DNA of 64,000 nucleotides from the IMG/VR virus record IMGVR_UViG_3300045988_123818; one strand, written 5' to 3'. Below are positions 3,862 through 41,144 of the stretch, in pieces (positions within the stretch are counted from its first letter, which is position 1; every line of letters starts with the position of its first letter). This stretch comes from a virus. The notes below the pieces were generated by a model that saw only the letters and a list, made by a program, of their open reading frames with translations, was not told the DNA's origin and did no database searches. The translations under genes were made by a program, and so were the position numbers.

Positions 3862-3873
3862 ATCTGTTTTATT

Positions 3874-16772: not shown

Positions 16773-16824
16773 AAATAAAAAATAAGATAAATAGTAACAT
16801 AAATTTTTTTTAAAACAAACAGTT

Positions 16825-17697: not shown

Positions 17698-17730
17698 ATA
17701 ATTGTTTAACATTAAAAACATAAAAAAGAT

Positions 17731-18756: not shown

Positions 18757-18780
18757 ACATAAGTTATAACAAGTAAATAA

Positions 18781-18818
18781 AAGTGGTGAACCTTCTAAAG
18801 GGTCCACCACTTTTTCTT
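18781..18818. terminator. bidirectional terminator between convergent operons
   Basis: gtggtgaacc pairs with gggtccaccac (6+3 bp, one mismatch). T-runs are present on both strands. Confidence 0.6.
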
Positions 18819-18822
18819 TTCT

Positions 18823-21800
18823 TTAATCAATCTTATCCAAATCTTCTACAGCCTCCTGTATTATCATCTCAATATTCTTATTCGCGAAGTCCACCTGCTT
18901 CTTATCATCGGCCCACTTCTTTCTCATCGTGTTCCAATGGCGCATTCGCTTTTCCGCATTCTTGATGATATTCACCTTTCTTTGCTCAGGTGAGCCTTCG
19001 AACTTTTCCAATGCAGCAGCATTTTCAATCCTCTTCATCGTAGGCACGTTCTTCGATTTCAGCTTGTCGTTATTGGCGATAGTCTGTTCCATTTCCTCCT
19101 TGTAGTTATACCATTTGGCTTTGGTTCTCGCCATGCTCGACTGTTCTCTTGGAGTATAGAAGAGTGAGCGCAAGAATGGCACATCGCCCACTTCTATCTC
19201 GTCTGTCTTGCCAGTCGTTGCCTTTGCACCCAAGCCTGCAGTGCGTTGAGTAAATGTGCCCATACCGCCACTCCACGAACCGAAGAAATGATTGAGCATC
19301 GACGGGTCCGTTGCCCAGTCAAGAACCTCGTTGCCCTTCATTTCCGGATTACCAGGAGCTATATTGTTTGTCTTGGCGTTCACCCACTTGTTCAAGTCCA
19401 CAAGTCTTGCCGGAACATTATTATAGGCGTTCTGCCATGCCGGGTTAAGCTCTGTCTTATCGCCCGTTCGTCTTATCGGCGCACCCTTCCAGTCGTTGTT
19501 AAGCCACCATTCAATGAACGGAACTATAGCAGTAGGAGCAATACCTTCTGTAGTCATGCCAACTCCGTTTTCCAAGCTCTTTTCATAGTTCGGATTATTC
19601 AAGAAGTCCACCACCGGGAATAGCTGCGACATACATCCCACGGCATCCATAGCCATGTTTCGCTGGCTCTTCACATTCTGGGCAAATGTTTGTCCTGCTG
19701 CCAAGTCGCCAAGACTATAGAATGCTCTCAGCTCAATAGCCAACGGCACTGTCACAAATTTGTTATTGCCCACATATATACACAGGTTGTTTCTCCTGAT
19801 ATAGTCTGGTAACTCGCCATACGGGTCTTTCACGTTGCCTCTGTCCTTCTCGTCCTCATTCTGTATAATAGCATTGTTGACAGCAGCCATAATCAACGCT
19901 AAGGCAAACGGTGCAGATGTCATAGCAACAGTAGTACCCACAGGCGCACGCTTGATATTCTTTAACAGCAGGTTCGTACTCTGAATGCCAGCATTAAAGA
20001 ACATCGAGTAGTTTCTTAGGTAGCCTGCCACAAAGCCGTATGTGTTTCGCCTTGCCTTCTGCCAATCACCCATTTCTCCGTTCTTGAAGCTCTTTATAGC
20101 ATCACCCGAACCATGACGGTTGAAGTTTGTCGATACCTCCTTTGCGTCATACGCGCTTCTTGCTGCCGAACGTCCCAAGTCTCTTGATGTGCAATATGTG
20201 GCGAAGCGTGCCATATTCTCAGCCACCTCGTTCAAGCTCTCAACGTTCTCGCCCAATTTCTTAAGCAGTTCCACAGCATTAACCACAACCTTCTTCGCGC
20301 CCTTTGCCGACTCCTTTTCCACAATACTCTTGTAGCTCTTCTCCATGTCGTGCATCGAGAACAACTGAACAAAACCTGTCTCGCCGCCGTTCTCCATGAA
20401 CTCCTTGAAGTATCGCTCCATCTTCGAGTTGCCAAGCGTGCCCTCTCTGTATCGGGCATACAGTCCGAAGCCTACACCATTCTTGAAGTCTTTCATCTTC
20501 ATGCTCTTCAATCTTCCTGCGCCCTCATTGTAGAACACATTCAGCGGATTAAGCTCACCATAATAGCGTGCCCATTTCTTAGCATATCTTCCACCTTCCT
20601 TTGCCCTCACATGCGAAGATGCAAATTCCGCGTCTCTCACGATGTTTCTCATTACAAACTCCGGACTCCACGATGTTGAGGCCATAGCCATCCATCGTGT
20701 CACAGTCTGCAACCACTTTTGGCTTGCCTTGCCGTTCTCCAGCATTCCGTTCAAAGCCTGTGCCGCTCTCGGATTGCCAAGCACCACAAATCTGTGTGTT
20801 CGTCCTGCTATCTTCACGTCCACAAAGTGTTGGCTCTTGTCCTTCGCTCTTTGGAACTTGAAGCCGATGTCCGTGCTGTTGCTCAGACTCTTTGCCTCGC
20901 CCTTAGCTTGCTTGGCCCTCATGTCCGTTTCAAAGGCATCCACAATTTCTGCAACTTCATCAGCTTCGGCTCCTTCGGGAATCTTCGGATAAGCCTCCTC
21001 CCAAATGTCGTTACCGTTTCTGTCTGTGCCTATTTTTTCTACCCAAACCTTTGTCTCCTTCACAAGATTCTGCTCTCCGCTGTTTCTCACGAATCGCGCA
21101 AAGGCTTGCTTTATAGTGTTCTGCCCTCCGTTTCTTATCGCACGGTTGCCCATCAAGCCTATCTGTGCCAATATCTCCACATTGCTCAGACTCTTTCGTC
21201 CCTTGGCGTTCATCAGCGTCGTACCGATATAGTTGCTTGGGTCGCCCATTTCTGTCACATATCCGTATACGTCCTCAGCGGTAGCCTCGTCAAACTTTCT
21301 CAACGGTACATACCAGTCGAACATGCCCAATACTCCGTCATGTGTAATTTGACTTATCAGTCCACTCTCGTAGTCCGAATTTACAGAATAATCAGTAGCT
21401 GCCTTCACCTTCTTCCAGAAGTCGGCAACTGAGCCTTTCTTCATGCTTTCCATGCTCGCCTCCTGGTTCATTACCTCGTCAATAGCTCCGGCATCATCGT
21501 ATGGTGCTTTCTTGTCTGCAATACCCTGCAAGCCGTGCATACCCGAATAGTCATGCTCCTCAGCCTTGAAGTCCTTGTCCAAGTTCTTTACAATCCACTC
21601 GTCCATCTGACGGTAGTACTCTTTCAAGTCTATCTGTCCCGAGTCAAGCTTCTTTCTAAGGTCGTATTTTTCGCCCTTCCAAGCAGTCTCCAAAGCATCA
21701 ATACTATCGGATTCTTCACTCTTCACTTTTCGTTCTTCCCTTATCCAGTCTCTCACGAACAGCACACGGTTTCTCTCCAATCCATGCTTTCTAATCATAT

Positions 21801-24800
21801 ACAGATTGAAGTTCCTTATTCTGTCCTCCACCTTCTTGCCGTCGAAGCTGTCCAACACGCTCGACATAGCCTTGTCAAGCGGCTCCATATAGTGTATTTC
21901 GAAGAGCTTGGATTTGTCGCTCATCTTGCCCTCCGTGATATTTTGCATCAGATATGGATTCATCGAGCTTGCCACATCTTCAATCTTCCTGATAGACGGA
22001 TCAATAGCCTCCATCAGTTTCTTCAACGAGAGCATATTGTCCATGAAAGCCTCCGTAGCCATATAGCTATGACGGTCCAGGGCATGATGGTATCTGTCCA
22101 AAGCGGTAGCAGCACTTGGAGCCGTGCGGTAGTGTATCTCTCCGTCCGTTGTCTCCAGCCATTCCTCGCGACTCATGTTCTCGAAGTCATGGCTCTTGCC
22201 GTCGTTGTCATACAGCTCGCCGCCCTCAATCTTCGTGTACTCCGTCTTCTCATGCTCTATCTTCCACCTCACAGCCTCAGCTCTCAGCTTCCACAGCGGA
22301 CTGTCTCCATGCTTCTGCACGTTCTTCGCAAGCCACAGCATATACTTCACGTCCTTCACGTTAGGCGAAACTCTGTAGCCTATCTCATGCAGGGCATCTG
22401 TCACCTTATTCTTAATGTAGTTCCAGAATCCCGGCTCACCCTTTCCGTCCTCTGCGCTCTTGGCGATAAACTCTTCAATAGCGTCATAGAATCCAAGGTG
22501 ATTCATGTTCATCTTTTCCTTCACATAAGCTCTCAGCTCAGCATTGATAGGGTTGTCCAAGTCCATCCAAAGGTCTCTCATGTAGGAGTCAAACTTATCT
22601 CCAAGCAGTCCTCTCATACCCTTGTGTCCTACAGTCTCGTGCCAAACGGTTTTCTCCGCGGTATACGTGTCATGGATGTTCGGCATATACAGATGCACCT
22701 CGCCCGTCTTCTCGTCATACCAGCCAGTCACCTGCTTGCCGCTCTCTATATCCTTGCGCACCTTCGGGTTCTCAATCTCCTCAACCGAGTTCACCATCTT
22801 CACCTTGCCTCCAGTTCTCTTGGCAACCTTCTCCACGGTCTTGATGATACGCTCGCTCATAGCATTCGAAGCCCCTGAAGTCTTCTCAGGTGTTACAACA
22901 CCCTTGTCGTAGCTCCACCCATTCTCGTCAACATCAGCCATAGCTGCATCGTCTATAGTCTTGTTGAAGTCTTCAAGAATATCCTCAATGGCTTTATCCA
23001 TCTTGCTCTTGTCCGAAACCTCAAAGAGTTTCTTCACAGCGTCCTTCACACGTTCCCACACGCTTCGGTCTCCCTTGCGCATAAGCTCCTTTGCGAAGTT
23101 CACCACTCTGTCCATCACTCCAAGGTCAAGTGCTTTTCTCTGACGTGGGTCTGCCATCTGTGCTGCAAACTCATACTCGTCCTCAAGTCCATAGTTATTC
23201 TCTCTAAACTTCTCTTGGTTCCCAACGGCACGGTCGTATATCTCCGATATTGTCTCAACTGCCTCTATCTGTTTTTGGGTGAGCATACCGTCTGCCTTGC
23301 CGCTCTTCACAAGATGAATGGCTCCGTTCACACCCTCATGTATCATTTCATGAAGAATGGTCACAGGTAACTCTACCTTAGAAGAAGATGTTTTTACAAG
23401 TCCGTCAATAGAATATCTTATATCGCGTTCAGGCGAAGCGTAGCCCATTGGACTTGTCAGTTTGCCACTATTTATTTCATCCTGTACACCAAAGTCTACA
23501 CCAAGGCGTTTTAGCACATCGCGTGTTTGGGCAAACAGTTTTCCGAGTTCTGGGGAGGTGTTAGACTGTCTAAATATCTTTTCAACCTCTCCAAATCCGA
23601 TTTCACTTCCGGCTGACAATCCGTAAGTGTTTCTGAGATTTTCTGCTCTAACTCGTCTATAGTCAAGTTCTCTATTGATTGCAGCCAAGGCAATTCTGTC
23701 TTGTGCTTTATTTCTATGTCCTTGAAGCGTAGTCTTATTATCCGCATTAACGGACGCGAGTCTTCCAGTTCCCGCTCTCTCCGAATCTTCGCCTGTATTG
23801 CTTTCCTTTCTTCTGAGTTCATTTTCTAATTGTTTCTTTTGGTTCTCTAATACTGATTTTCGATAACGGGAAGCAAGGAAAATCTTATCTGAAACAGCTT
23901 GCATAAATTCTTCTTTGCTGTCAAAATCACTCTCTACCTCCCCAATCTCTTCATCAAACTTCTTCTCAATTCCCTCCGATGTCTTCTTGTCAACATCTTC
24001 CGGCACAACACGGCCATCGCGCTGTCCTTTCGAACCGCCCTTCGCCTTGTTATACACCTCAGCAGCGTGCTCCACTCTGTACATCACACTCTTGCCCTCG
24101 TACTTCTTCTTCAAGTATCGCTGCATTTCCTCCTCGGTCATGCCTGCCAACTTGCAAGTCAGTTTCTTTAGCTCCGCAATCACAGCCTGGCTCGTCTCGT
24201 TTCTTGTCTGACGCTCCTGTTGCTCAAAGGTCTCGTACGTGATGCCAAGGAATTTCTTCTTCTGCTCGGCACTATAACCCTCCATATCAAACGGAATAGA
24301 GTAGTCCTTCCAATCGCCTCTGACACGCACGTTGATGCCACCCTCGTTAAAGTCTACCCGCACGTTCTTCAACTCCTCCAAGTCCTTAACCGTCTGCTTA
24401 CTCTTCTTCATCATTATCGCATTGGTGTCGATAATGCGGTCGGGCATTTCCACGTCGCGCAAATCCTCGAAGAAGTCCTCTATCTTGTCGTAGTGACCGC
24501 CCAAGTCCCACTTCTCGGGATGGCCAGCCTTTGCTCGCATAGCCTCGTTGCTTATCTTGTCCACCACCACAACACGGCATACTACCTTCGTACCTGCCTG
24601 TTCGAACACGATGTCGGGCAGCTCCACCTCCGCACGTAGCACGGCGGTCTTCTCGCCCTCAATCCACTTGTCAAACTTCTTGTCCGTTGATCCTCTCGGT
24701 ATGAGAGCCACCACCCGACCGCCTTCTTCCAAGTGTTTAAATGCCTTACCCAAGTGAGCAATGGCTGTTGCTCCAGCCGTGCCGAACGGTGGGTTCATCA

Positions 24801-27800
24801 CCACCACGTCGTGCTTGTTGCTGATGTCGTAGTTCTCGAATATGGTGTTCACGAACTTTCGTCCCAAGCCTCCTGCCTTCAACTGCAACTTGGTGAACAG
24901 ACTCTGGCTCGGCTCAATGGCTGTCATTCGGTTGCCCTTTGGCACATATCGCGCAATGGCTCCATGTCCTGCGCTCGGTTCCATTGCCGTGTCGCCTTCG
25001 CCCATGTTCGCCCATTCCACCATCTTGTAGCCCAATGGTTCCGGGGTAGGGAAGTAGTCCACGCCCTCACGGTTGCGCGAGTTAAGCTTCTGGTTGGAGT
25101 AGTAGTCAAGCACAGCGTCATCGTATGGGTCGGCGTTCTGCTCCTTTGGCGCGTCAAACTCCTTGCCGCCAACGCCCTGCTGCTCAATTGGCACAACTCC
25201 GCTATGCTCCAGTATGCCCTTGGCGAAACTGTCTCTCAAGCTTCGCGCCTTACTGCCAAGCGCAAGGTTCTCCGTCGTCGATACCTGGTTGTTGAACTTC
25301 TCGCCGAACAGCATCATTTCTGAGTTCAGTCCCAATATCGGGTACTCAAATATGGCGTTGCTCTTGTTGCCGATACGGTAGGTGCGTCCCTCTATCTGCA
25401 AGACTGTGATAGGGCTTTGTGGCAGAGCCAATGTTATGCACACTCGCTGATGCTCGCCCGTCTTGTCATGCAGCGAGATTCCCTCCTTGCCGCTCGCCTC
25501 CTGAATCACGATGATGTTCTTGCCGCTGTTGTCGTCGTTGAAGGTGTCCACGGCCTTGTCCTTCACCTTTGAGCTTTCCTTGCCACTAAAGAACAGCACG
25601 TTGTCCTTGCCGAACACCTTGGCTATCTGCTCTCTTGGCATACTGTAGTCCAATGTCTGCTCCCACTTCAACAAGTCGGCATACTTCCGGCTGAAAGCTC
25701 TAACAGCCTGTATCGCCTCGTTCTTTGCTTCGCCTGGCTTCATAAGTGAGATAGAGTAATTAGCTCTATCCAACATCAAGGCGAACGGCGGCTTTATAGG
25801 TTCCTTTGTCTCCACTCTTCGGTGGAATATCACGACCTTGCGTCCTGCGTCCAAATGGGCCTTTATGCGCTCGATAATGTTAGCCACCTTCATAGTCTCA
25901 AACAGCGCGCTACCATAAGTATAGTCGCCTATCGTCTTACGGTAAGCGTCTGCCAGCACTCCGTGTCCTCTTACGGCATCCTGCACAGCTTGGTTGAACT
26001 GCTCCGCATGGTCGGGCGATACCGTCGGGAAGTCTCTTGAATAGTCATACGGACTGTCTATAATGCGTCCGCTCATGGTTCCCAACGTGTCTAGCAGATA
26101 GTCAGAGAAGGCTATCTCCTGCTTGGCTACAGCTTCGGGATTACTCGTGCTCTGCTCCAGTCTGCCATAACGGAACTTGTATGCAGCGCCAAAATGGTCA
26201 AGATAGAACTGTGTGCGCCCGCTCATTCTTCCGCCCTTTTCTTCTTCGGGATATTTGAAAATGTATCCCTCCGCATAGTCAAGGTTCTCGCGTGTATTGA
26301 ACGGTGTGGCTGAAAGGAAGATAGTCTTTGTGTCCTTCCATTCGCTTTTTGCCTGCGCCTCAAGCTTAGGCATCACCTCATTTATGTAATGACTAAAAGC
26401 CTTCTTGAATTCGCTGTGTATCTCTCCAAGCTTCGGGAAACTGGCATAATCTCCAGGAGTAAAGTTTATTATCTCCTTCGGTAATGCTTTACTTGTAGCG
26501 TATGATATGTCACGTGCCGTTGCGCTCGGATGGCTCGCTTTGTATTCGTCCTGTATACGTTTTACTTCTTTATCGCGCTCAGCGTTAAACTGCTCGCTAA
26601 GGCTCTTCATCTTCTGATAGTCTGCATTCGTCTCTTGTAGCCTAAGGAAGCAATGATTCTCGCTTCTGTTCGTCATCATGTAGTGCTGCATACTACGTGC
26701 TGTCTCCGCACCATTCTTGTTTTCCATGATACGGTGACTCTCGTCGTATATCACAGCATCCCACTTGGTTTCCAGCAGCTTCTTGTTCACTCCGAAGTTG
26801 GCGAATGTGGTGATCACCACGCCCTCGCCGCTTTCCGTCGTAGCCGTTGTGCCACGCTCCTTGGCTATGCTGTCAAGGTCGCGAATCTCCATGTTCAGAT
26901 TGCGTCCGTCCTTTATCCAGTCGCTCACCTTCTTCTGGCTCGGTGTCACAATAAGTATTCGTCCCTTGCCCTGCTTCACAAGTCGCTTCGCAATGCCAAG
27001 TCCCGTGAATGTCTTGCCCGTACCCGTGCCGTTGGTGAACATGTAGCCCTTGCCATAGGCGTGCTCTCTGTCCGCATGTTCCTTGCCGAAGAACTGTGTC
27101 TCTGCTTTCAGTACGTCCTCCTGCTGCTGAGGCAGAAGATAGGGTAGGGTCTCCTCGATGTTCTTCTTGTCGCCTATCTTCACCTTGATAGGCTCGGCCT
27201 CCATCTGTCTCTGATACTTATCGTTCAGAGGCTCTGAAAGCTTGTTTCTCAGCTTCTCGTTTCCGTGGATGCCTGCCCATTCGCCGATGGTATGGGTCTC
27301 ACCGTCCATCTGGTAAGGAGTGTTCCAATAGTCTTCGATGAATCTGTCAACATCATCATCGCTGAGGCCTATCATCTTCAACTCCTCGCCTTCCTCGGCG
27401 CGCATAGCTGCCTTCCACTCGTTGAACTTGTAGATACCTTCCTTTATTTTCAGCACAGCTCCATTAAGGTGCATCTTGAACAACTCGGGGAGCATTTCTA
27501 TCTGCTCGGGCGAAAGGTTCAGCTTCTTGAAGGGAGTCAAGGCTATCTTCACATATCCTTGTCCTGCCTTCTTCCATCTTTCCCAAAAGTCCTTTTTCTT
27601 CTGCTCGTATTCGGCGCGCTCCTGTTTTAGTCGCTCAGATGTACTATCTGGGAAATGAGTTCCTTGCTTGGTTGCAGGCTTCCGTCCTGCATTCGGGTCA
27701 AGAGGTCCATTGCCGCCGCCTTGTCCTCCTCGCTTAGGTACATTTCCCTCATTGCCAGCTCCACCGCCTCCTCGGGTGTCAGTACTTCCGGCAGATACGG

Positions 27801-30800
27801 CATCCATTCCGGGTGTATTTCCTTCACCTTTGTCAACGCGCGGTTTTCCAGTAGATACAGGAGTGTCGTTCTCACCGCCCGTTCCGCTCTCTCGCTCTCC
27901 GGGTGTAGTTCGTTCGCCGTCTGTTCTATCCACTGGTCCATCAGGTCCTCCGCCTTCTCGTCCTCGTCCCAATCCCAATTCTTGGCTGCCTCCAGTATTG
28001 GGAGCATCCAACTGTGTTCCGTCTTTTGTTCCGCTATTGTCGGGAACATTCTCATGTCTACTTCTAACATCGTTCCAAATTTTAAAGTAAGAAATTGCGT
28101 TAATTATATTGCCCTTGTCGCCACGCAAGTATGCGAGTGCGGCAGGTATCAACTCTTTGTTCTCCTCAGAAGTCAGCTCGTTTATCTCTGTTTCCGTAAG
28201 AGGATTCTTCGATGATACGGCTTCTCGTTCCTCCAAGTCCATCTGTTCCCAAGGCTTGTCTATCTTCTCGGCTTCTGCCTTGCCTACTTCCTCGCCAAGA
28301 ATCTTTCCTATCTCTCGACCGATAATCCTGCGTCGCTCCACCAAGCCAATACCGTTTCCTCTCAGCTTGGTTTCCATCGCCTGTTTCATCTTCTCTGTAG
28401 CACGCTTTATATCAGAAGCGTCGCCACTCTCCTTTGCCTTCGCCAGTTCCTCCTTAGCCTTCTGCACCTGCTCGTCCTTATACATTTCTGCAGTATGCGC
28501 CAACCAAGCCAACGGATTTGTCTTCGAAGGTTCCTCCTTTGTCTTCTCACCCTTCGGGTCTATAGCGTCTTTTATATCGCCCTTCGGTGTTACAACACTA
28601 TCGGATTTTTCACTTTTCTCTTTTCCCTTTTCACTCTCCCTCTTGACAGCCTTGTCTACTTCTCGCTGTCCTTCTGCTGGTTCGTTTCCTCCTGGTGCTT
28701 GCGGTTCAGTTCCCTCAGAGCTGCCAGCATCGCCATTTCCTTCTTTGCTTGAATGTCTTGTTTCATAGTCTTTCCAATTTCTAAGTTTTAAAAATTCGTT
28801 TACAAAATCTTCCTTTGTAGGCCTCTCGCCAAACATTTCCGCCTGACTGGCATCCGCATAATGAGCTGCATTACGGTTATATGCCATCATCAGCTCACGG
28901 AAGTCCTCAACCTTACCCTCCAGAGCAAGAGCGATAGCCTGAGATATAGGGTCAAATCTGTCCGCAGCGTTCTCGCCAAACATAGCAGGAGTGCGCAAGT
29001 ATGCGTCCACACCGCTTCCGCCTTGACGAGCTTCATATACCAACTGCACAGCCTTGTCTATCTCCTTCATCAGAGCATAGTCGCCAAGTTTCATGTTGTC
29101 TGTCACAGCACGGATGCCATTCAGAGCCTTTGTCTTAAGCATTCCGTCAACGCCCATCATACGGATAGTGTTTTCTGAGAACACGCTGCCAAGCAACAGA
29201 TTCTTCACGAAGTCCTTGCCTGCTGCCGAGAGCTTGTCTTCACTCTCACGCAATCCGGCTACCTCGTTCAGACCAATCACGCCCTTATCTATTAAACGCT
29301 TTAGCAACGAGTTTATTGCTGTAGGATTGTTAAAGAATGCATCAAGATTACCGCTTCCCTCTATCTCTGATATAATAGTGCCTATCTCGTCTGCAGAAAG
29401 CTTCTTCGAGTTCGCCACTGCTTGCTGTGTATTGCCCTGTGTCTTCTTCTCGTTCTTGTTGAACTTGGCGAAGGTTGCCGTGTCATACTTCATCGGCTCG
29501 TCACTCACAAGAACAAGGCGCGGATGCTTTATTCCGCTCTGCTCAATCTGCTCTGCGGTGAAGCCGTAATTCTCTGCATTCTCCTTCAATGCTTCAAGAT
29601 AAGCACTGTCGGTACCGTTCTTTGCTGCCTTCTGTCCCGCCATCGTTCTGCCGTTACCGTCAACAACAATGCCGTCAGATGTCACAACCGGAACCTGGTC
29701 TACTGCCTGTCCGTCATACTTCATGGCTATCATATCAGTTACCAGCTGAGCCTGCTTGTCATTCTCATAGTCACGGTCATTGATAGTCCTGCCTTCTTCG
29801 TTCACGGGGAAACCATCACTCTTCTTATATCCGTCGTTGGCATTATGCGAAGGTGTCAGACTGTCTGCTTCAACAATCTCATAGTGTCCTCTTAGCTTGC
29901 TTCCGTCAGCCAATGTACGTGTACGCTTGTTGCCCACAATACGCTTACCGCTTTCAAACTTCTCACGAACAGCGCCTAAATTACCTGCTTCACTTACCGA
30001 ACCTTCTTCACCTGCACTACCTACCTTCTCCATTCCAGCCTTAACCTTATTCGCGGTCATTACCTTCTTGATATTGGTATATAGCTCCAGTTCTGCTTTG
30101 GCGGCATCAACCGCCTTCGTCTTCTGAGCCTCAGCTTCCTTGGCGTCGTTCAAGTCGCCCGTGTAATCCACCTTTATTTTTTCGGCTTCTTTCAGCATCT
30201 TCTCGGCTCTCTTTATCTGTCCGTCTACAGCAGCTTCTGCGTTCTCGCCAAACTGCGAAGACATCCACTCCGCTCCATGTTCGGGTGTCATTTGCGAGTA
30301 GTCAGCAGTCTCACGGCCTTTCGTGTCCTTCATCATCGGCACAGGTGACCCATCGGCAAATGTTAAAGTCTCGTTACTTCCATTGCCATTATCGGATGGA
30401 TTATTTTTTTCTCCTTCCCCTATAGGCTTTACATCTTCAACTCCAGGCGCCGACGCACCCTCCTTCGGTGTTACAACACTCTCAGTCTTAGTATCGGATT
30501 TTTCACTTTTCTCTTTTCCCTTTTCACTCTCAGCGTAAGCCACCGAGTTCTTCTCCTCCAACATCGTCTGATAGTTCTTGGCATAGTCCTCCGTCTTTTC
30601 CACATGGTCAAGCTGCACGTCCTTCTTGCTCACGAAGTCCATCTCCTTTGTATTCGGGTCAAGCACGCTAAGCATGTCGCCAACGCTTTCTCTCGCTCTA
30701 CCCTCATTATCAAAGGCAACATCGCCCGCTCCAACAATAAGTACTCTGCCATTGTTGTCCTTCACAAACAACATCTGGCCGCCATCCTGCTTCTCGCCGT

Positions 30801-33735
30801 TCAGCTCGCCCTTATAGCTCCATTGCTCCACATGCTTCTGCACGGTCTCAGCAATCTTCTGTTCAGTTCCGCGATACATGCCCACAGCCTTAGCCTTGGC
30901 GTTGATGTAGTCGGCAAAAGGTGCAAGCTGTTCCTGCGTCAGTCCCGAGTTTATCAGCTCCATGTATATCTGAGGTTCCGAAAGACCTTCCTTTGTCAGT
31001 CTCTCATACTCCTGCTTCAACACATCGTTGCTTTCCAAGGCTGCATTAAACGCCTTTTCGGCATTATTCATGTTGTTCAGCACCTCAGCCACAGCCTCGT
31101 TGTTAGGATTCTCCGTGCCAAGGTTATTCTCCTCAACCACGTCCTTGCCCTCTGTCTGCGACTGGTCGGGATGCAACGTTCCTTCCGGGAACTGCTCTCC
31201 CTCATAAGCCTTTCTCAGAGCCACACAAGCGTTCTGTTCTCCCTCGCTGCGCTTCAACGGGTCTTTATCCATAGCTGCCTTCAACTGTTCAGCAGTAAAG
31301 CCAAACGTTTCGGCTACAGTCTCCAAGGTTTCTTGCGCCACCTTCTCGTCCTTTATCTGAGCTGCACCATAGGCATTACCCAAACGTTGGTTTTCGCGTC
31401 TCAGTCTGAGTGAGTAAACTACAGAGTCTCGTTCGTCTTCAGTTTTGACGATATGTTCTGACAATAGCTCTCCATATTTACTATACTCGCTTACAGTGCC
31501 TCCTCCATAACCAATATACTCCATCATAGGACGTGACGAAGGAACCGTTCCCATAACCAAAGCAGAGAACTTAGCCTTTGTGTCCCAAGGTATTGTATTG
31601 TCTGCCATTATCTCATCATAGGCAGTCTTCACAAATTCAGCGTCCGTATCCTTATACGACTCCTCACCTTTCCCTTTGGCTGCGGTCTTCTTTGCTCGCA
31701 TCGCCCAAGATGTCAGACTTTCTTTTCTCGTCAGCGGATTGTCGTGTACGTCATATCCGTAGACAGACTCCTTGCGCTTCGGTGCAGACGCGCTTCCGAA
31801 CAGCTGTTCTTTCTCCTCATTAGTGAAAGTATATCCACCAAAGGCTGCTCTCTGTCCGTCAGATGTCATAAGGTTTTTAATGTTTCTCGCCACCATGTCA
31901 AGATAGCTTTCCTTCTTGCCATCCTTCGCATAACGCTTAGGCAGTCTTGCATGTGTCAGCTTCAAGGCTACAACATTGGCGCAAGCCTCAAGGTTTCCCT
32001 CTACGCTCAGCCAATCTGTATCATGTCCCTCTATCATCTTGGCAACATTACCACCCATGTGCATACCAACGCCTTCCATAGCCAACTGGAACACCTTGGC
32101 AGGAATACGCTTCACGCCACTCACATTATAGATTCCTGCACCTACAGCACCGCCAATGCCGCCCATAGTAGCCCAGCTTGCGCCCTCAGAAAGACCGCCC
32201 ATAGTCATAAGCTTCACGGTATTGCCAATAGAAGTATCATCGCCAGTAGAGTAGTTCTGCACGGCTGCATTCGTCGAACCGTACAGCACACCCGTCACGC
32301 CTTGACTCACAGCACCCGTTGCAGCCATTCTGACGATACGACCGCGCAATGACGTGTTCGCTATTCTTGCTGCCTGGGCTACTCCGTTACCCATAACCTT
32401 GCCTGCCACGGCTGCACCAGCCTTTCCTAATGCGCCAAACACAGGAGCGTCTGCAGCAAAGCTCAATGTTCCGCGTGCAACTCTCGCACCCATACCCGGC
32501 TTAACATAAGGATTTTCCCCGTTATCGGTCATAGCCATGCCTTGCTGAGCATACTGTCTCTGCTTCTTTGACATCATGCCCATCGACAAGATAGTGCCTA
32601 TCATCGAGTCGTTGACACCACGGATGATATATTCTGCCGTACTCTTAGGCATATTACGGCTCAATTCGCTCTTCTCAAACTCCTCAGCTATCTTTGCTTG
32701 CAAGCCAGGAGCTATATAATTCTTTACATAATCCTCTGGGTCGATACCTAACGAAGCTGCCTTTTCTACTATTTCCTTCTGCATCTTCGGGTCAGAGAAC
32801 AACCCAGCCATGTCTTTCTCGGCATTCTTGCTGAGCTGATTCATTAGCTTGTCAGGATCAAGGGCTTCATTGTAAGCCTTTCCTGCTGCCATATATGCAA
32901 ATGGAGAAGCCTTGCTCAAAGCATCTTCTGCTGCAACACCTTTAACTGTCGCATCCTTAAACATCTTTTGGATACTATTGTTTATATATCCGCCAAGCTG
33001 TTTGTCAACAAGCTGTCTGCTGCTTTCTTCCAACTCATCCTCCAACTGTCCCCTTGTCTTCACAAGGTTATTGTTCACGTCCTCGTTCCCAAGGTCAAAG
33101 GCAGGAGCATTCCTTCGTCTTATCTCACCCTCAGCATTTCTACCAGCCTCTTGTCCAGCCTGTTCCATTCTACGCTCCAGTGACTTCTGTGCTCTTCTCA
33201 CACCGCCTACCATCTGTTTTACAGCACCCGGCTTTGTATAGTCTATAGGCATCTGCTCTTCATCGCGTCTTTTCGAGGCGTCAGCCTCCCTAAGACCCTT
33301 CACAAGCTCACTCTCCTTACCCACAGACACAGAAGGCGCAGCAGCGCCCCTATTCAAAGGCTTACCACCCATAGCAAAGCTATCGGATTCTTCACTCTTC
33401 ACTCTTCCCTCTTCACTTTCACCTCCCCACTTCTCTTGCGCTACCCGCTCCTGTGCGCGTCCCAATGCAGAACTATAGGATTTTTCACTTTTCCCTTTTA
33501 CCTTTTCTCTTCTCACGGTTCTTCCCGTAAACAGATGAGCACCAAAGTCACCAACACGACTCGCATCCTTTACGCTCACATCGCCTCTTCGCCCTGTCTT
33601 TCGGTCTATCACCTCCATTCGAGCACCAGGAAATGCTTTTGCAAATCCCATCGGGTCCTTGTCATACGCTGTCTTGTCTACCGTATGCCTGTTACCTTTC
33701 GCATCCTTGAAATAATAATATCTATTGTCTGCCAT
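18823..33735 (-). CDS. giant polyvalent protein (4970 aa): Gly-zipper region, ParB-like, SNF2/DExH helicase, N6-adenine MTase, two HExxH zincins, C-terminal TM module
   Basis: VVDGNGRTMA (about 29650). GTGTGKT (about 27020), DESH (about 26740) and QIEGRTYRIGN (about 25380). EPSAGHG (about 24970) and NPPFG (about 24785). HEMIHEG (about 23340) and HETVGH (about 22625). The TM segment SAPFALALIMAAV (about 19900). Confidence 0.9.
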   Translation of the reverse strand: MADNRYYYFKDAKGNRHTVDKTAYDKDPMGFAKAFPGARMEVIDRKTGRRGDVSVKDASRVGDFGAHLFTGRTVRREKVKGKSEKSYSSALGRAQERVAQEKWGGESEEGRVKSEESDSFAMGGKPLNRGAAAPSVSVGKESELVKGLREADASKRRDEEQMPIDYTKPGAVKQMVGGVRRAQKSLERRMEQAGQEAGRNAEGEIRRRNAPAFDLGNEDVNNNLVKTRGQLEDELEESSRQLVDKQLGGYINNSIQKMFKDATVKGVAAEDALSKASPFAYMAAGKAYNEALDPDKLMNQLSKNAEKDMAGLFSDPKMQKEIVEKAASLGIDPEDYVKNYIAPGLQAKIAEEFEKSELSRNMPKSTAEYIIRGVNDSMIGTILSMGMMSKKQRQYAQQGMAMTDNGENPYVKPGMGARVARGTLSFAADAPVFGALGKAGAAVAGKVMGNGVAQAARIANTSLRGRIVRMAATGAVSQGVTGVLYGSTNAAVQNYSTGDDTSIGNTVKLMTMGGLSEGASWATMGGIGGAVGAGIYNVSGVKRIPAKVFQLAMEGVGMHMGGNVAKMIEGHDTDWLSVEGNLEACANVVALKLTHARLPKRYAKDGKKESYLDMVARNIKNLMTSDGQRAAFGGYTFTNEEKEQLFGSASAPKRKESVYGYDVHDNPLTRKESLTSWAMRAKKTAAKGKGEESYKDTDAEFVKTAYDEIMADNTIPWDTKAKFSALVMGTVPSSRPMMEYIGYGGGTVSEYSKYGELLSEHIVKTEDERDSVVYSLRLRRENQRLGNAYGAAQIKDEKVAQETLETVAETFGFTAEQLKAAMDKDPLKRSEGEQNACVALRKAYEGEQFPEGTLHPDQSQTEGKDVVEENNLGTENPNNEAVAEVLNNMNNAEKAFNAALESNDVLKQEYERLTKEGLSEPQIYMELINSGLTQEQLAPFADYINAKAKAVGMYRGTEQKIAETVQKHVEQWSYKGELNGEKQDGGQMLFVKDNNGRVLIVGAGDVAFDNEGRARESVGDMLSVLDPNTKEMDFVSKKDVQLDHVEKTEDYAKNYQTMLEEKNSVAYAESEKGKEKSEKSDTKTESVVTPKEGASAPGVEDVKPIGEGEKNNPSDNGNGSNETLTFADGSPVPMMKDTKGRETADYSQMTPEHGAEWMSSQFGENAEAAVDGQIKRAEKMLKEAEKIKVDYTGDLNDAKEAEAQKTKAVDAAKAELELYTNIKKVMTANKVKAGMEKVGSAGEEGSVSEAGNLGAVREKFESGKRIVGNKRTRTLADGSKLRGHYEIVEADSLTPSHNANDGYKKSDGFPVNEEGRTINDRDYENDKQAQLVTDMIAMKYDGQAVDQVPVVTSDGIVVDGNGRTMAGQKAAKNGTDSAYLEALKENAENYGFTAEQIEQSGIKHPRLVLVSDEPMKYDTATFAKFNKNEKKTQGNTQQAVANSKKLSADEIGTIISEIEGSGNLDAFFNNPTAINSLLKRLIDKGVIGLNEVAGLRESEDKLSAAGKDFVKNLLLGSVFSENTIRMMGVDGMLKTKALNGIRAVTDNMKLGDYALMKEIDKAVQLVYEARQGGSGVDAYLRTPAMFGENAADRFDPISQAIALALEGKVEDFRELMMAYNRNAAHYADASQAEMFGERPTKEDFVNEFLKLRNWKDYETRHSSKEGNGDAGSSEGTEPQAPGGNEPAEGQREVDKAVKRESEKGKEKSEKSDSVVTPKGDIKDAIDPKGEKTKEEPSKTNPLAWLAHTAEMYKDEQVQKAKEELAKAKESGDASDIKRATEKMKQAMETKLRGNGIGLVERRRIIGREIGKILGEEVGKAEAEKIDKPWEQMDLEEREAVSSKNPLTETEINELTSEENKELIPAALAYLRGDKGNIINAISYFKIWNDVRSRHENVPDNSGTKDGTQLDAPNTGGSQELGLGRGREGGGPDGPVDRTDGERTTPGERESGTGGENDTPVSTGKPRVDKGEGNTPGMDAVSAGSTDTRGGGGAGNEGNVPKRGGQGGGNGPLDPNAGRKPATKQGTHFPDSTSERLKQERAEYEQKKKDFWERWKKAGQGYVKIALTPFKKLNLSPEQIEMLPELFKMHLNGAVLKIKEGIYKFNEWKAAMRAEEGEELKMIGLSDDDVDRFIEDYWNTPYQMDGETHTIGEWAGIHGNEKLRNKLSEPLNDKYQRQMEAEPIKVKIGDKKNIEETLPYLLPQQQEDVLKAETQFFGKEHADREHAYGKGYMFTNGTGTGKTFTGLGIAKRLVKQGKGRILIVTPSQKKVSDWIKDGRNLNMEIRDLDSIAKERGTTATTESGEGVVITTFANFGVNKKLLETKWDAVIYDESHRIMENKNGAETARSMQHYMMTNRSENHCFLRLQETNADYQKMKSLSEQFNAERDKEVKRIQDEYKASHPSATARDISYATSKALPKEIINFTPGDYASFPKLGEIHSEFKKAFSHYINEVMPKLEAQAKSEWKDTKTIFLSATPFNTRENLDYAEGYIFKYPEEEKGGRMSGRTQFYLDHFGAAYKFRYGRLEQSTSNPEAVAKQEIAFSDYLLDTLGTMSGRIIDSPYDYSRDFPTVSPDHAEQFNQAVQDAVRGHGVLADAYRKTIGDYTYGSALFETMKVANIIERIKAHLDAGRKVVIFHRRVETKEPIKPPFALMLDRANYSISLMKPGEAKNEAIQAVRAFSRKYADLLKWEQTLDYSMPREQIAKVFGKDNVLFFSGKESSKVKDKAVDTFNDDNSGKNIIVIQEASGKEGISLHDKTGEHQRVCITLALPQSPITVLQIEGRTYRIGNKSNAIFEYPILGLNSEMMLFGEKFNNQVSTTENLALGSKARSLRDSFAKGILEHSGVVPIEQQGVGGKEFDAPKEQNADPYDDAVLDYYSNQKLNSRNREGVDYFPTPEPLGYKMVEWANMGEGDTAMEPSAGHGAIARYVPKGNRMTAIEPSQSLFTKLQLKAGGLGRKFVNTIFENYDISNKHDVVVMNPPFGTAGATAIAHLGKAFKHLEEGGRVVALIPRGSTDKKFDKWIEGEKTAVLRAEVELPDIVFEQAGTKVVCRVVVVDKISNEAMRAKAGHPEKWDLGGHYDKIEDFFEDLRDVEMPDRIIDTNAIMMKKSKQTVKDLEELKNVRVDFNEGGINVRVRGDWKDYSIPFDMEGYSAEQKKKFLGITYETFEQQERQTRNETSQAVIAELKKLTCKLAGMTEEEMQRYLKKKYEGKSVMYRVEHAAEVYNKAKGGSKGQRDGRVVPEDVDKKTSEGIEKKFDEEIGEVESDFDSKEEFMQAVSDKIFLASRYRKSVLENQKKQLENELRRKESNTGEDSERAGTGRLASVNADNKTTLQGHRNKAQDRIALAAINRELDYRRVRAENLRNTYGLSAGSEIGFGEVEKIFRQSNTSPELGKLFAQTRDVLKRLGVDFGVQDEINSGKLTSPMGYASPERDIRYSIDGLVKTSSSKVELPVTILHEMIHEGVNGAIHLVKSGKADGMLTQKQIEAVETISEIYDRAVGNQEKFRENNYGLEDEYEFAAQMADPRQRKALDLGVMDRVVNFAKELMRKGDRSVWERVKDAVKKLFEVSDKSKMDKAIEDILEDFNKTIDDAAMADVDENGWSYDKGVVTPEKTSGASNAMSERIIKTVEKVAKRTGGKVKMVNSVEEIENPKVRKDIESGKQVTGWYDEKTGEVHLYMPNIHDTYTAEKTVWHETVGHKGMRGLLGDKFDSYMRDLWMDLDNPINAELRAYVKEKMNMNHLGFYDAIEEFIAKSAEDGKGEPGFWNYIKNKVTDALHEIGYRVSPNVKDVKYMLWLAKNVQKHGDSPLWKLRAEAVRWKIEHEKTEYTKIEGGELYDNDGKSHDFENMSREEWLETTDGEIHYRTAPSAATALDRYHHALDRHSYMATEAFMDNMLSLKKLMEAIDPSIRKIEDVASSMNPYLMQNITEGKMSDKSKLFEIHYMEPLDKAMSSVLDSFDGKKVEDRIRNFNLYMIRKHGLERNRVLFVRDWIREERKVKSEESDSIDALETAWKGEKYDLRKKLDSGQIDLKEYYRQMDEWIVKNLDKDFKAEEHDYSGMHGLQGIADKKAPYDDAGAIDEVMNQEASMESMKKGSVADFWKKVKAATDYSVNSDYESGLISQITHDGVLGMFDWYVPLRKFDEATAEDVYGYVTEMGDPSNYIGTTLMNAKGRKSLSNVEILAQIGLMGNRAIRNGGQNTIKQAFARFVRNSGEQNLVKETKVWVEKIGTDRNGNDIWEEAYPKIPEGAEADEVAEIVDAFETDMRAKQAKGEAKSLSNSTDIGFKFQRAKDKSQHFVDVKIAGRTHRFVVLGNPRAAQALNGMLENGKASQKWLQTVTRWMAMASTSWSPEFVMRNIVRDAEFASSHVRAKEGGRYAKKWARYYGELNPLNVFYNEGAGRLKSMKMKDFKNGVGFGLYARYREGTLGNSKMERYFKEFMENGGETGFVQLFSMHDMEKSYKSIVEKESAKGAKKVVVNAVELLKKLGENVESLNEVAENMARFATYCTSRDLGRSAARSAYDAKEVSTNFNRHGSGDAIKSFKNGEMGDWQKARRNTYGFVAGYLRNYSMFFNAGIQSTNLLLKNIKRAPVGTTVAMTSAPFALALIMAAVNNAIIQNEDEKDRGNVKDPYGELPDYIRRNNLCIYVGNNKFVTVPLAIELRAFYSLGDLAAGQTFAQNVKSQRNMAMDAVGCMSQLFPVVDFLNNPNYEKSLENGVGMTTEGIAPTAIVPFIEWWLNNDWKGAPIRRTGDKTELNPAWQNAYNNVPARLVDLNKWVNAKTNNIAPGNPEMKGNEVLDWATDPSMLNHFFGSWSGGMGTFTQRTAGLGAKATTGKTDEIEVGDVPFLRSLFYTPREQSSMARTKAKWYNYKEEMEQTIANNDKLKSKNVPTMKRIENAAALEKFEGSPEQRKVNIIKNAEKRMRHWNTMRKKWADDKKQVDFANKNIEMIIQEAVEDLDKID

Positions 33736-33759: not shown

Positions 33760-35208
33760 CTACTTCACATACTGACTCCAGTTCGTTCCTTTACCAGTAG
33801 ATGTACCACCTTTGGCTTGTGCCTTCGGCTTACTGCCAGAGCCTTGCCATCTTATAGGGTTCGCGCCCTTGCGCTGTCCCCTAATCTGCTTGGCTTCACT
33901 CTTCGACACCCTCTTGGTCACATATCCAACCTTTCTGCCCGAAGTGTTCACGCCACGCTTGGCCTTGTCGCTCGTCCTGATGTCAGCATAGCCAAATCCG
34001 TCCCTGAACGTCTTTCTAAGCGACTCGCCACGGCTTGAAGCGTCAAGCAAGCCATAGCTAATGGCACTCTGAATAATCTTACTTGCTCGATCTGCACTTG
34101 GATTCACCATCTTGCCGTCACTTCCCTCATATCCATTCATAGCACGGTCGAGTTCACGCTGCTTCTGAGGAGTAATCATACCAAGATTACGCATTTCTGT
34201 CCAAGCCTGGGCTTCCTGCTGAGGCGTAAGCTGTTTCTTGCTTGCCAGTCTTCCGTATGGAGTGGCATATCCATAACCGCCTCCTACGCCGCCGCTGCTT
34301 CCCGAGCCTCCAGCCGCTTTTGCCATTGACAAAGCCAGTCTGCTCGCACTTAGTCTTTCAGTAGCCTTGTTGTGGCGTTTGGTTTCGCCTAACCTCTCAC
34401 CTGCCAACTTCAAGTTGCCTTCTTGTACCCCAAGCAAACCATCGCGATATGCCTTCAAGTCCTTAGCGTTCTGGTCTGCTCTCTTGTCAGCACTTTTCTT
34501 AAGCTCAACCATCTGCCCTTTATAAGCTCTGTCTGCATCTGCTGCATCCATCTTTATCTGCAAGTTGGCATTCTTATACGCAGCGTCAGCCTCAGCAGCA
34601 GCTTTTCTCGCACGTTCTGCCTTTCTCTTGTCAAGGTCTGCTTGCATCTCAGCAGTCGGATTATTAAACTTCTGTAGCGCAGCTCCCTTGGAAGTATTAT
34701 AGATGTTCCCCATGTGTCGTATTGCGTCAGCTAAAGTGGCTATGCGCATATTGTTTCTCGTCATGCGCTCGTCATAATCATCATCACTCTCGCCTTCACG
34801 CCTTCCTGGTCGCTTCTTCGACAATCCGCCAAGCCACTTAAAGAAACCACCATCCCTTTGACTATCGTCCTTCTCAAACACAGCAGTAACACCCTTATCA
34901 CCACCAACAGCACCCAAATCAACACCAACCAAAGGCTTAGAGTTAAGAGCGTAAGAGGATGGCATCCTTCCTTCCATGTCTCTCGGATTTGACGTCTGCC
35001 ACGATTGTTGAGCCTTACTGCCCTCAGTCACAGGTTCCCCGTTAGGTGACCATCCTACATTTACAGGCATATTCTCAAACGTAGTAGGTCGTTTACCACT
35101 AAACACATTAGCTGGTTGCTGAGGCTGTGCCAAAACACCAGGAGCCACAACACCAGGCTGTGTTACAACACCCTCCCTCTTCTCCTTATCGTCCAATACT
35201 GTGTTCAT
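33760..35208 (-). CDS. hypothetical protein (482 aa), Gly-rich with a coiled coil; candidate internal or ejection protein
   Basis: Long ORF immediately upstream of the giant gene in the same operon. Confidence 0.75.
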   Translation of the reverse strand: MNTVLDDKEKREGVVTQPGVVAPGVLAQPQQPANVFSGKRPTTFENMPVNVGWSPNGEPVTEGSKAQQSWQTSNPRDMEGRMPSSYALNSKPLVGVDLGAVGGDKGVTAVFEKDDSQRDGGFFKWLGGLSKKRPGRREGESDDDYDERMTRNNMRIATLADAIRHMGNIYNTSKGAALQKFNNPTAEMQADLDKRKAERARKAAAEADAAYKNANLQIKMDAADADRAYKGQMVELKKSADKRADQNAKDLKAYRDGLLGVQEGNLKLAGERLGETKRHNKATERLSASRLALSMAKAAGGSGSSGGVGGGYGYATPYGRLASKKQLTPQQEAQAWTEMRNLGMITPQKQRELDRAMNGYEGSDGKMVNPSADRASKIIQSAISYGLLDASSRGESLRKTFRDGFGYADIRTSDKAKRGVNTSGRKVGYVTKRVSKSEAKQIRGQRKGANPIRWQGSGSKPKAQAKGGTSTGKGTNWSQYVK

Positions 35209-35593
35209 AATCCTCCAAGTTTTTCTTCAACAAGTCAAACGCCTGACCAAGGGTATTGACAAACTTCTCCGCCTTTTCCCTACGCTTGTACTGAAATACT
35301 ATCTCCTTGTTCAGTACAGCAATCACCTCGCACTTCTCTGACATGCGCTTAGCGTTCTTCTTCTTTATCCTCTCTATCACCTTGTCCTTATACGCCAAAG
35401 CATTCTCGGCAGACTTCAAGCAACGTTCAAACCAGTCACGCTCCTTTGTCACACCAGCAAGAGCCGACTTCAAACGCTCAATCTCTGCTGCTTGCTCGTC
35501 AACGAGCGAATCCTTCAACAAACCCGCAGCCTCCATCACACGATTAACGTCTACACCTTTCTTCGCGTTTATATCAATCTTTTTCTTTCCCAT
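35186..35593 (-). CDS. hypothetical coiled-coil protein (135 aa)
   Basis: ORF with a 23-nt overlap onto the downstream gene. Confidence 0.7.
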   Translation of the reverse strand: MGKKKIDINAKKGVDVNRVMEAAGLLKDSLVDEQAAEIERLKSALAGVTKERDWFERCLKSAENALAYKDKVIERIKKKNAKRMSEKCEVIAVLNKEIVFQYKRREKAEKFVNTLGQAFDLLKKNLEDYEHSIGR

Positions 35594-36430: not shown

Positions 36431-36623
36431 TGACCCCCCTTTCCGGTAGTACCTTTTCCAGGAAATATACTAACGACCTCCTTTCTGTGGAGTACCTTTT
36501 CTGGGGAAAATGATGATGACCTCCTTTGAGAACAGTACCTTTTTATACCTATGCTTTTATCTACTATAATTCGCAGCCAGTACCTAAGCCCCCACCCCCT
36601 TTGGGTCGTTCATCATCCACCTA
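36403..36623. repeat. five tandem 43-45-bp direct repeats, each starting AGTACCT
   Basis: AGTACC occurs at 36403, 36448, 36491, 36534 and 36579. Units 1-3 share AGTACCTTTT...GG.AA.AT...GACCYCCTTT. Units 4-5 are degenerate. Confidence 0.75.
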
Positions 36624-41143: not shown

Positions 41144-41144
41144 C

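Follow-up and report, generated by a model that had tools for sequence, protein, structure and literature searches.

A 4970-residue mosaic protein of a podovirus-type phage of gut Prevotellaceae/Bacteroidales as a probable virion-packaged, host-injected polyvalent protein

The 64,000-nucleotide stretch of viral DNA analysed here (IMG/VR virus record IMGVR_UViG_3300045988_123818; hereafter the window) contains a single uninterrupted open reading frame (ORF) for a protein of 4970 amino acids (aa), which takes up 23.3% of its length. The same size and a share of 23 percent had been given in an earlier reading of the bare sequence, referred to below as the original prediction. We interpret the product, with a probability of roughly 0.8, as a polyvalent protein that is packaged in the virion and injected into the host by a podovirus-type phage of gut Prevotellaceae/Bacteroidales. 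This interpretation is carried by the identities of the domains, the late and structural gene context, the pattern of conservation among relatives, and the virion association of two other giant proteins, the homologous phi24B gp47 and the positionally equivalent JC1 gp69; all of these agree with the polyvalent-protein concept that the original prediction had invoked. Comparison with relatives points to conserved termini enclosing a variable enzymatic middle. As in phage-type polyvalent proteins, at least two unrelated effector or LPD domains were found in one polypeptide, the gene lies near the late genes of a portal-bearing phage, and the phage-restricted domains ddrB-ParB and LPD38 are both present. 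Iyer, Burroughs, Anand, de Souza and Aravind (2017, J Bacteriol, PMC5512222; Iyer 2017 below) treat these two as phage-only polyvalent domains encoded next to late genes.

The ORF is a real gene and not an assembly fusion, because 16 of the 18 independent related IMG/VR loci (viral contigs) fetched for comparison contain homologous ORFs that are unbroken, measure 4427-6478 aa and keep the module order; in the remaining two, one ORF carries a single in-frame TAG and the other runs off its contig. At the base composition of the window, the computed probability that 4970 stop-free codons arise by chance is about 10^-137. An assembly fusion of several genes had been named in the original prediction as an outcome that resequencing might reveal. 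In favour of an artefact, whether an assembly chimera or a set of neighbouring genes merged through sequencing errors, split gene calls do exist in the databases as a result of a single in-frame TAG in the giant gene of two relatives (L024 and L026), and fragments of 1000-1800 aa are frequent among the database homologues. These fragments sit at contig ends wherever they were checked, homologues of 2806-5553 aa occur in cultured phages, and the continuity across related contigs speaks directly against a fusion, so that this explanation is effectively already refuted and we give it next to no weight. Within its clade, where relatives reach 6478 aa, the window protein stands at the small end; a homologue of 5553 aa is known from a cultured Bacteroides phage, and the size, which had been thought unusual, is therefore not so. 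Near-identity DNA searches with the giant ORF against phage and plasmid collections gave no match, nor did a search of the whole protein against PDB sequences.

The in-frame TAG codons of the two relatives were located. In L024 the codon (nt 10040-10042) takes the place of a Gln codon a short distance before the helicase P-loop. L026 is a prophage on a bacterial contig of 179 kb, and its protein was observed on 13 contigs; here the TAG (nt 9842-9844) falls within the conserved HExxxH domain. In both cases gene callers split the giant protein, and the codon could represent nonsense decay, suppression or recoding. A stand-alone gene for the C-terminal LPD38 module in L026 was considered and rejected, the apparent split being this single TAG within the HExxxH domain; the other database homologues of that module of about 1000 aa that were checked lie at contig ends.

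Profile searches, which the original prediction had set as a check that might overturn its domain calls, back the ParB, helicase and methylase assignments (coordinates of all features are collected in Table 1). The ParB/Srx-like nuclease motif VVDGNGRT is present at residue 1357, and Pfam ddrB-ParB (PF18763) matches residues 1277-1399 with an expectation value (E) of 4e-14 and 53.1 bits against a cut-off of 27.6 bits. Compared with P1 DdrB, the module gives an E of 1e-8 by phmmer and of 5e-23 with a family profile, the match covering DdrB residues 27-178 in its N-terminal part; the module is homologous to DdrB. The predicted SNF2/DExH helicase can be kept as a superfamily 2 (SF2) helicase or translocase, with GTGTGKT at residue 2236, DESH at residue 2331 and a match of Pfam ResIII to residues 2217-2348 (E 4e-11) above its curated cut-off. 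ResIII, a general model, is the only one of the Pfam helicase models to pass; SNF2-rel_dom (20.5 bits, cut-off 24.9), AAA_34 (25 bits, cut-off 27) and Helicase_C all fall below theirs. Motif VI, QIEGRTYRIG, is SNF2-like.

The helicase-methylase core is matched by phrog_10691 at E 2e-239. For the predicted N6-adenine methyltransferase, the motifs EPSAGHG (residue 2919) and NPPF (residue 2981) are in place, and in a profile of the region FPTPEP, EPSAGxG and NPP[FY] are invariant. The Pfam model MTS scores below its cut-off, and the assignment is supported by phrog_6263 'DNA methyltransferase' (E 2e-18) together with a family profile that, searched against the PDB, retrieves adenine DNA methylases, namely BsaXI (E 3e-4), a type I HsdM and M.TaqI. 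The same pair, with the helicase before the methylase, is also found in Serratia phage Parlo and Pseudomonas phage Skulduggery. The large-protein PHROG families matched by the giant ORF are all of unknown function. Between the ParB module and the helicase, residues 1900-2030 (window 27646-28038) form a low-complexity stretch rich in Gly, Thr, Pro and Asp (27% Gly), which is probably a disordered spacer.

Two domains with HE motifs follow. The original prediction had listed two HExxH motifs; HEMIH at residue 3462 is the sole HExxH of the ORF, and the second motif proved to be HExxxH (WHETVGH, residues 3698-3704). In the HEMxH family (10 sequences, down to 25% identity) the H, E, M and H are invariant, as is an E situated 56 residues downstream. 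A profile of this domain of about 230 residues matches the PDB chains 9sfn_G, 'internal virion protein' (E 3e-4), and 8vb2_A (E 3e-3), the latter being the tetrameric ejection protein gp48 of Pectobacterium phage PhiM1, an analogue of T7 gp16; about 130 residues are matched, and both the HExxH and the Glu align. The domain is part of a variable cassette (residues ~3231-3610); some close relatives are without the domain or carry LPD3 instead. In the HExxxH domain the H, E, H, G and the downstream EE are invariant out to homologues from Bacteroides and Vibrio phages at 23-28% identity, and searches of this domain against Pfam and the PDB gave no match. Neither domain matches a Pfam MPTase model, and no similarity between the two could be detected. 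A HEXXXH variant of the polyvalent-protein metallopeptidase is described by Iyer 2017 (PMC5512222), and a zincin fold is plausible for these domains.

The C-terminal ~960 residues, termed here the LPD38 module, carry the Pfam LPD38 domain above its curated cut-off (residues 4637-4855, E 9e-27), and phrog_14770 matches the C-terminal 1300 aa at E 2e-138. Transmembrane helices had been predicted for this region; one clear hydrophobic helix was found, along with a second stretch that is borderline. An AlphaFold2 (AF2) model of residues 4011-4970 has a usable mean confidence (predicted local distance difference test, pLDDT, 78) and matches 66 viral predicted structures at E ≤ 1e-3, the best ~20 with template modelling (TM) scores of 0.5-0.7 over ~950-1000 columns. 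Among the matched proteins are some whose names refer to a lytic transglycosylase, RelA/SpoT or type I methylase domain. The module is common to Stx, Vibrio, Ralstonia, Ruegeria and Bacteroides phages. It ends giant proteins in Stx phage VT2-Sakai (orf71, 2806 aa), in Vibrio (3066 aa), in Ralstonia GP4-like phages (3224 aa, 'DarB-like') and in Bacteroides (5553 aa), the phages being podoviruses of about 60 kb that infect E. coli (the Stx phages), Vibrio, Ralstonia and Bacteroides; in each phage inspected a protein of 370-510 aa precedes the giant protein. In bacterial genomes, a scan with a single protein found no match for the module and an alignment-based scan confirmed it at 207 loci, mostly in Bacteroidales assemblies and also in other gut assemblies, the nearest copies belonging to Leyella stercorea (70% identity) and Segatella copri (57%).

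At the other end of the protein, a module of about 950 residues is always N-terminal and occurs in giant proteins. An exhaustive search with residues 1-1200 retrieved only 113 cluster representatives among 1.84 billion; near-complete homologues are mostly 4000-6245 aa long, and in these the match is located at about residues 1-1200. Searches of the module against Pfam, PDB sequences and phage records gave no match, even when it was used as a profile. Residues 1-94 of the leader that precedes it are matched by short, fragment-like database proteins. The module includes the region described in the original prediction as glycine-zipper-like and hydrophobic. This region (residues 410-590) consists of G to 18% and of A to 16% and contains six GxxxG motifs, but its hydrophobicity is no more than borderline, with a maximum Kyte-Doolittle-19 score of 1.16.

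A repeated linker marks module borders. A purine-rich repeat of ~40 nt is present in five copies inside the giant ORF and nowhere else in the window, and it encodes the K/E/S-rich sequence ESEKGKEKSEKSD and variants of it, often followed by VVTPK. All five copies lie at module borders, as does a VVTPEK half-site at residue 3612. Close relatives keep the linker at the same borders, with extra cassettes inserted exactly there, and the middle region is mosaic among relatives, which carry InPase, LPD14, GGDEF, ART-PolyVal, LPD3 or a second methyltransferase. Only the closest clade (roughly ≥80% identity) has the repeated linker, which was absent from relatives at 25-60% identity; the idea that it is a family-wide feature was rejected on this ground. 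The repeat could act as a cleavage site for a protease or as a joint for in-frame recombination, or it could be no more than a flexible linker that was duplicated recently.

On its strand the giant gene closes a row of four genes. It starts after a gap of 24 nt behind the gene for a 482-aa protein, and the three smaller proteins encoded upstream (263, 135 and 482 aa) are in line with the operon with three Gly-rich or coiled-coil proteins that the original prediction had noted. The 263-aa protein is homologous to gp57 of the Bacteroides phage BKO1-TP3, which is encoded two genes upstream of the giant gene there, and a protein of 420-510 aa stands before the giant gene in Stx, Vibrio and Ralstonia phages and in JC1. 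The window further encodes a P22-like portal, an SU10-like adaptor, a 561-aa capsid protein with a homologue that matches the SU10_MCP family, and, in addition, RecT, an SbcC-like protein and a protein that resembles a scaffold. As in the original prediction, no candidate for a tape-measure gene was seen in the window; likewise, no convincing large terminase was identified there, the terminase call being weak. The neighbouring ORFs at 15780-18756 had been taken for tail-fibre genes, a view that their matches do not sustain, since these are weak, missing or concern families of unknown function (phrog_25468; a 26-residue match to a 'minor tail protein'). The window represents a podovirus-type phage of gut Prevotellaceae/Bacteroidales, which is probably temperate because its relatives occur as prophages.

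From this evidence we infer packaging of the window protein, anti-restriction activity, proteolytic processing and a conduit role, in the following proposed sequence. The giant gene would be expressed late, as the last gene of the four-gene internal-protein operon, and a few copies of its product would be packed in the capsid; these would leave through the short tail, before the DNA or together with it, in an at least partly unfolded state. The conserved ends would act as a chassis, made up of the N-terminal ~950-residue module with its Gly/Ala-rich amphipathic stretch and of the C-terminal ~1360 residues (the HExxxH domain and the LPD38 module), and may serve encapsidation, ejection and envelope crossing, replacing the large ejection protein of T7-like phages. 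The middle would constitute exchangeable cargo acting on DNA at the start of infection. Part of this cargo is the DdrB-like ParB module, a putative nuclease/nucleoside triphosphatase (NTPase); the SF2 translocase coupled to the N6-adenine methyltransferase could track along the incoming genome and methylate it or shield it against restriction, in the manner of P1 DarB. One or two zincin-like domains might cut the polyprotein into working pieces or aid its passage through the wall.

A number of observations weigh against this interpretation. Virion presence is known only for the related proteins, i.e. the homologue phi24B gp47 and the positional equivalent JC1 gp69. The window helicase-methylase gave no match to P1 DarB at E ≤ 10, either by phmmer or by hmmsearch with a family profile, and P1 was absent from the tblastn matches; furthermore, the P-loop (residue 2236) precedes motif I (2919) in the window protein, whereas motif I (117) precedes the P-loop (857) in P1 DarB, whose family has LPD36 ahead of the methylase. 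Because there is no detectable DarB similarity and the domain order is reversed, the term 'DarB-like' would express for the window protein an analogy and not homology. The E values of the HEMxH matches to solved ejection proteins (3e-4 and 3e-3) are marginal. In the zincin-like metallopeptidases of polyvalent proteins, the HExxH or HExxxH motif lies on a helix that follows a sheet of three strands, and a later helix bears a conserved Glu. The AF2 model of residues 3380-4010 has a pLDDT of only 55 and, at that low confidence, shows strands and then the motif helix for the HExxxH domain; a fold search with it returned nothing significant, the zincin anthrax lethal factor appearing only at a probability of 0.28. 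When the C-terminal model was compared by fold with the PDB, which includes solved ejection and ejectosome proteins, no match was obtained, and the candidate gp16-like fold for this module was dropped on that account. The match of the 263-aa protein to T7_gp14 (E 7e-5, 23.2 bits) falls below the 27-bit Pfam cut-off, and no similarity could be detected between the 482-aa protein and its positional counterparts in other phages.

Some of the same evidence can be accommodated if the giant protein is mainly a structural ejection protein, a counterpart of T7 gp16 or PhiM1 gp48 that forms a conduit, and if its enzyme-like domains aid envelope crossing, for example by wall remodelling, and do not act on host defences or on DNA. 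Such a role would suit a gene that ends an operon whose first gene weakly resembles T7 gp14, and a HEMxH domain that matches solved tetrameric ejection and internal virion proteins; an ejection role has also been proposed for gp47 by the authors of the phi24B study, and lytic transglycosylase domains occur in some proteins that share the C-terminal module. However, DNA, and not the envelope, is the target of ParB-like nucleases, SF2 translocases and adenine DNA methylases, variation of the middle between close relatives is typical of conflict effectors, and the C-terminal module has no fold similarity to the solved parts of ejectosomes. We regard a mainly structural protein as rather unlikely; a conduit role is compatible with that of a packaged and injected polyvalent protein, and both can be true at once.

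Cleavage of the chain at the K/E/S-rich linkers (ESEKGKEKSEKSD...VVTPK), either by the zincin-like domains that it contains or by a head protease, is of similarly doubtful standing. It would release five proteins: the N-terminal module, the ParB module, the helicase-methylase block, the HExxxH domain and the LPD38 module. The five linker copies and the half-site do mark module borders, they are restricted within the window to the giant ORF, the linker occupies these borders in close relatives too, the protein contains one or two conserved zincin-like domains, and P1 DdrB is processed before packaging; autoprocessing of polyvalent proteins was proposed by Iyer 2017 (PMC5512222). The linker is limited to the closest clade, hence it is no general feature of the family, and the breakpoints of inserted cassettes at the linker, together with a pair of copies identical in 40 of 40 nt, fit recombination joints at least equally well. 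According to the same source, N4 virion RNA polymerase is transferred without being cut, and so are plasmid polyvalent proteins (PMC5512222). A more far-reaching reading, to which we would attach only slight probability, combines these elements into a plug-and-play array in this Prevotellaceae phage clade: the fixed ends would be a new podovirus ejection chassis, with folds of the N-terminal and LPD38 modules that are absent from the PDB, and the 40-nt ESEKGKEKSEKSD linker would be at once an in-frame swap joint, by which cassettes are exchanged between co-infecting phages, and a cut site used after delivery by the built-in zincin-like domains.

Table 1. Features of the giant ORF and its surroundings in the 64,000-nt window
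Feature	Residues (aa)	Window position (nt)	Strand	Remarks
Giant polyvalent ORF	1-4970	18823..33735	-	ATG at 33735; stop codon 18823-18825
N-terminal leader	1-119	33379..33735	-	Ends in two degenerate K/E/S-rich linker copies (aa 75-88, 106-119)
Linker copy	75-88	33474-33513	-	Repeat search
Linker copy	106-119	33381-33420	-	Repeat search
Conserved N-terminal module	120-1068	30532..33378	-	Fold unknown; includes Gly/Ala/Val-rich stretch
Gly/Ala/Val-rich, GxxxG-rich stretch	410-590	31966-32508	-	Composition
Linker copy	1069-1081	30492..30531	-	ESEKGKEKSEKSD, then SVVTPK; 40/40 nt identical to 28599-28638 copy
DdrB-like ParB/Srx module	1092-1699	28639..30462	-	Pfam core aa 1277-1399 = nt 29539-29907
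Linker copy	1700-1712	28599..28638	-	Extra cassettes of relatives inserted exactly here
Predicted SF2 helicase/translocase, SNF2-like	2217-2789	25369..27087	-	GTGTGKT, DESH, QIEGRTYRIG
Predicted N6-adenine-type DNA methyltransferase, EcoKI/TaqI-like	2890-3070	24526..25068	-	FPTPEP, EPSAGHG, NPPF
Variable cassette with zincin-like HEMxH...E domain	3380-3610	22906..23598	-	Invariant motif; profile matches
Conserved HExxxH domain	3619-3830	22246..22881	-	WHETVGH, then EE ~50 residues downstream; opens conserved C-terminal ~1360 aa
Linker copy	3999-4011	21705..21744	-	EERKVKSEESDS; start of LPD38 module
Conserved C-terminal LPD38 module	4011-4970	18826..21705	-	Pfam LPD38 core aa 4637-4855 = nt 19171-19827
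Hydrophobic helix	4597-4626	19858-19947	-	In LPD38 module
Terminator-like hairpin		18779..18814	-	14-bp stem, T-rich tail; 9 nt past stop codon, between convergent genes
482-aa gene		33760-35208	-	Gly/Ala/Lys-rich
135-aa gene		35186-35593	-	Coiled-coil-like
263-aa gene		35639-36430	-	N-terminal hydrophobic Gly-rich segment; weak T7_gp14 match
Three ORFs (330, 290, 341 aa)		15780-18756	+	Converge on giant gene
P22-like portal		8372-10363		Structural region
SU10-like adaptor		13603-14271		Structural region

Several further observations were made in the window. A region of ~830 nt upstream of the internal-protein operon (36431-37264) contains no ORF of at least 60 aa, has a lower GC content (~0.42) and gave no Rfam match; it may contain a promoter or serve in regulation. 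Scans of the whole window for Rfam families and tRNAs were empty. Beside the portal gene, a 712-aa protein (3874-6012, minus strand) is strongly homologous to BKO1-TP3 gp51, annotated 'tail spike protein' (E 6e-134), and its single PHROG match, a weak one, is to a 'terminase' family. An 887-aa protein (1198-3861, minus strand) matches phrog_32516 of unknown function at E 6e-90 and, weakly, an 'internal virion protein' family; encoded apart from the giant gene, it is a candidate for a further large protein of the internal or ejection kind. In the early/replication region, a 406-aa protein (41121-42341, plus strand) has a strong PcfJ-like domain (E 4e-32), a family known from conjugative plasmids.

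Neither the size of the protein nor the polyvalent concept is new, and the present case extends the concept to another host group. Already in 2017 the concept (PMC5512222) covered combinations of ParB, helicase-methylase and metallopeptidase domains. What is new lies at the level of detail and is of modest interest: an uncharacterised, always N-terminal module of ~950 residues, a helicase-then-methylase order opposite to that of P1 DarB, and a 13-residue linker repeat at cassette junctions. The C-terminal module, which is likewise uncharacterised, is also of modest interest. The apparent oddity of the protein mostly reflects the poor annotation of such phages. These phages are common in human and animal gut Bacteroidales and spend about a fifth of each genome on one protein that is probably injected. 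A fixed chassis with an exchangeable payload would supply a list of candidate anti-defence activities (ParB-like nuclease, translocase-coupled adenine methylase, pyrophosphatase, ADP-ribosyltransferase and GGDEF) of relevance to Prevotella and Bacteroides, where the conflict between phage and host is poorly understood, and the two large conserved modules of unknown fold are probably needed for moving a 550-kDa protein into and out of the capsid. The current picture is unchanged by this protein, and the concepts of polyvalent proteins and of giant ejection proteins are widened by it.

The window protein shares with the phage-type polyvalent proteins of Iyer 2017 (PMC5512222) the assembly of many domains in one polypeptide encoded beside late or virion genes, an SF2 helicase with an EcoKI/TaqI-like adenine methylase bearing a TP motif, zincin-like domains including the HEXXXH variant, and extensive mosaicism among orthologues. 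It differs in that the methylase comes after the helicase and not before it, that a Pfam search detected no LPD36 in the giant protein, and that no Pfam model matches the ~950-residue N-terminal module or the HExxxH domain; the repeat found at the junctions of cassettes is a feature of the window clade that does not appear in the available text of that source (PMC5512222).

The closest cultured relatives are the Bacteroides temperate phages BKO1-TP3 (gp55, 5553 aa), BF1-TP2 and BS-TP4 (Gut Microbes 2025; PMC12694917), in which the portal (E 1e-129) and the 712-aa neighbour (E 1e-134) are strongly homologous to those of the window, and the capsid and scaffold-like proteins are homologous as well. 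The C-terminal ~1300 aa of the giant protein, including the HExxxH domain, are 27% identical, and the 263-aa gene is conserved upstream. In contrast, there is no detectable N-terminal homology with BKO1-TP3, and its giant gene abuts the portal gene, which that of the window does not. The BKO1-TP3 giant protein is not discussed in its source paper (PMC12694917).

The giant proteins of the Shiga toxin (Stx) phages (933W and phi24B gp47, VT2-Sakai orf71; 2806-2811 aa, with LPD5, LPD1, MuF-C and LPD38) share the C-terminal ~550 aa at 24% identity (E 1e-21) and the position of the gene, which follows that for a 421-aa protein; they are about half the size of the window protein and contain no ParB, helicase or methylase. 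The phi24B protein gp47 (2811 aa) was found by proteomics and was not seen in the cryo-electron microscopy map, and the authors propose that it is a packaged ejection protein (bioRxiv 10.64898/2026.04.10.717836). The Bcep22-like and GP4-like podoviruses (Burkholderia JC1 gp69, 4515 aa; Bcep22 gp75; Ralstonia GP4, 3224 aa) are likewise about 60 kb in size and temperate, and their 'DarB-like' giant gene accounts for ~22% of the genome and stands at the end of the morphogenesis module, behind a gene for a virion protein of ~500 aa; their hosts are Betaproteobacteria and not Bacteroidales. GP4 shares the C-terminal LPD38 module directly, with an identity there of only ~21-22% and no N-terminal homology, while JC1 gp69 and Bcep22 gp75 are linked via GP4 by published synteny, i.e. 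by the same genome position, and not by comparison of the proteins. JC1 gp69, at 22.1% of its genome, was detected by mass spectrometry in CsCl-purified virions (PMC9144972).

In the P1 Dar system (DarB, DdrB, DarA, Hdf, DdrA and Ulx), proteins packaged in the head are injected with the DNA and guard it from type I restriction. The window ParB module is homologous to DdrB, and a helicase and an adenine methylase are present as in DarB; the P1 components are several separate proteins and the phage is a myovirus. The ejectosome of the T7 gp14/gp15/gp16 type (PhiM1 gp48-50) resembles the window in having an internal-protein operon that ends in the largest protein, with a HEMxH domain that matches PhiM1 gp48 and another solved internal virion protein and a first gene that weakly matches T7_gp14. 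These matches are marginal, the window protein is about four times larger and carries domains predicted to act on DNA, and its C-terminal module is without a fold match. A protein of 5007 aa from the podovirus Pavtok was described in 2021 as the longest phage protein then known and considered a putative ejection protein (Casjens and colleagues, PMC8402733).

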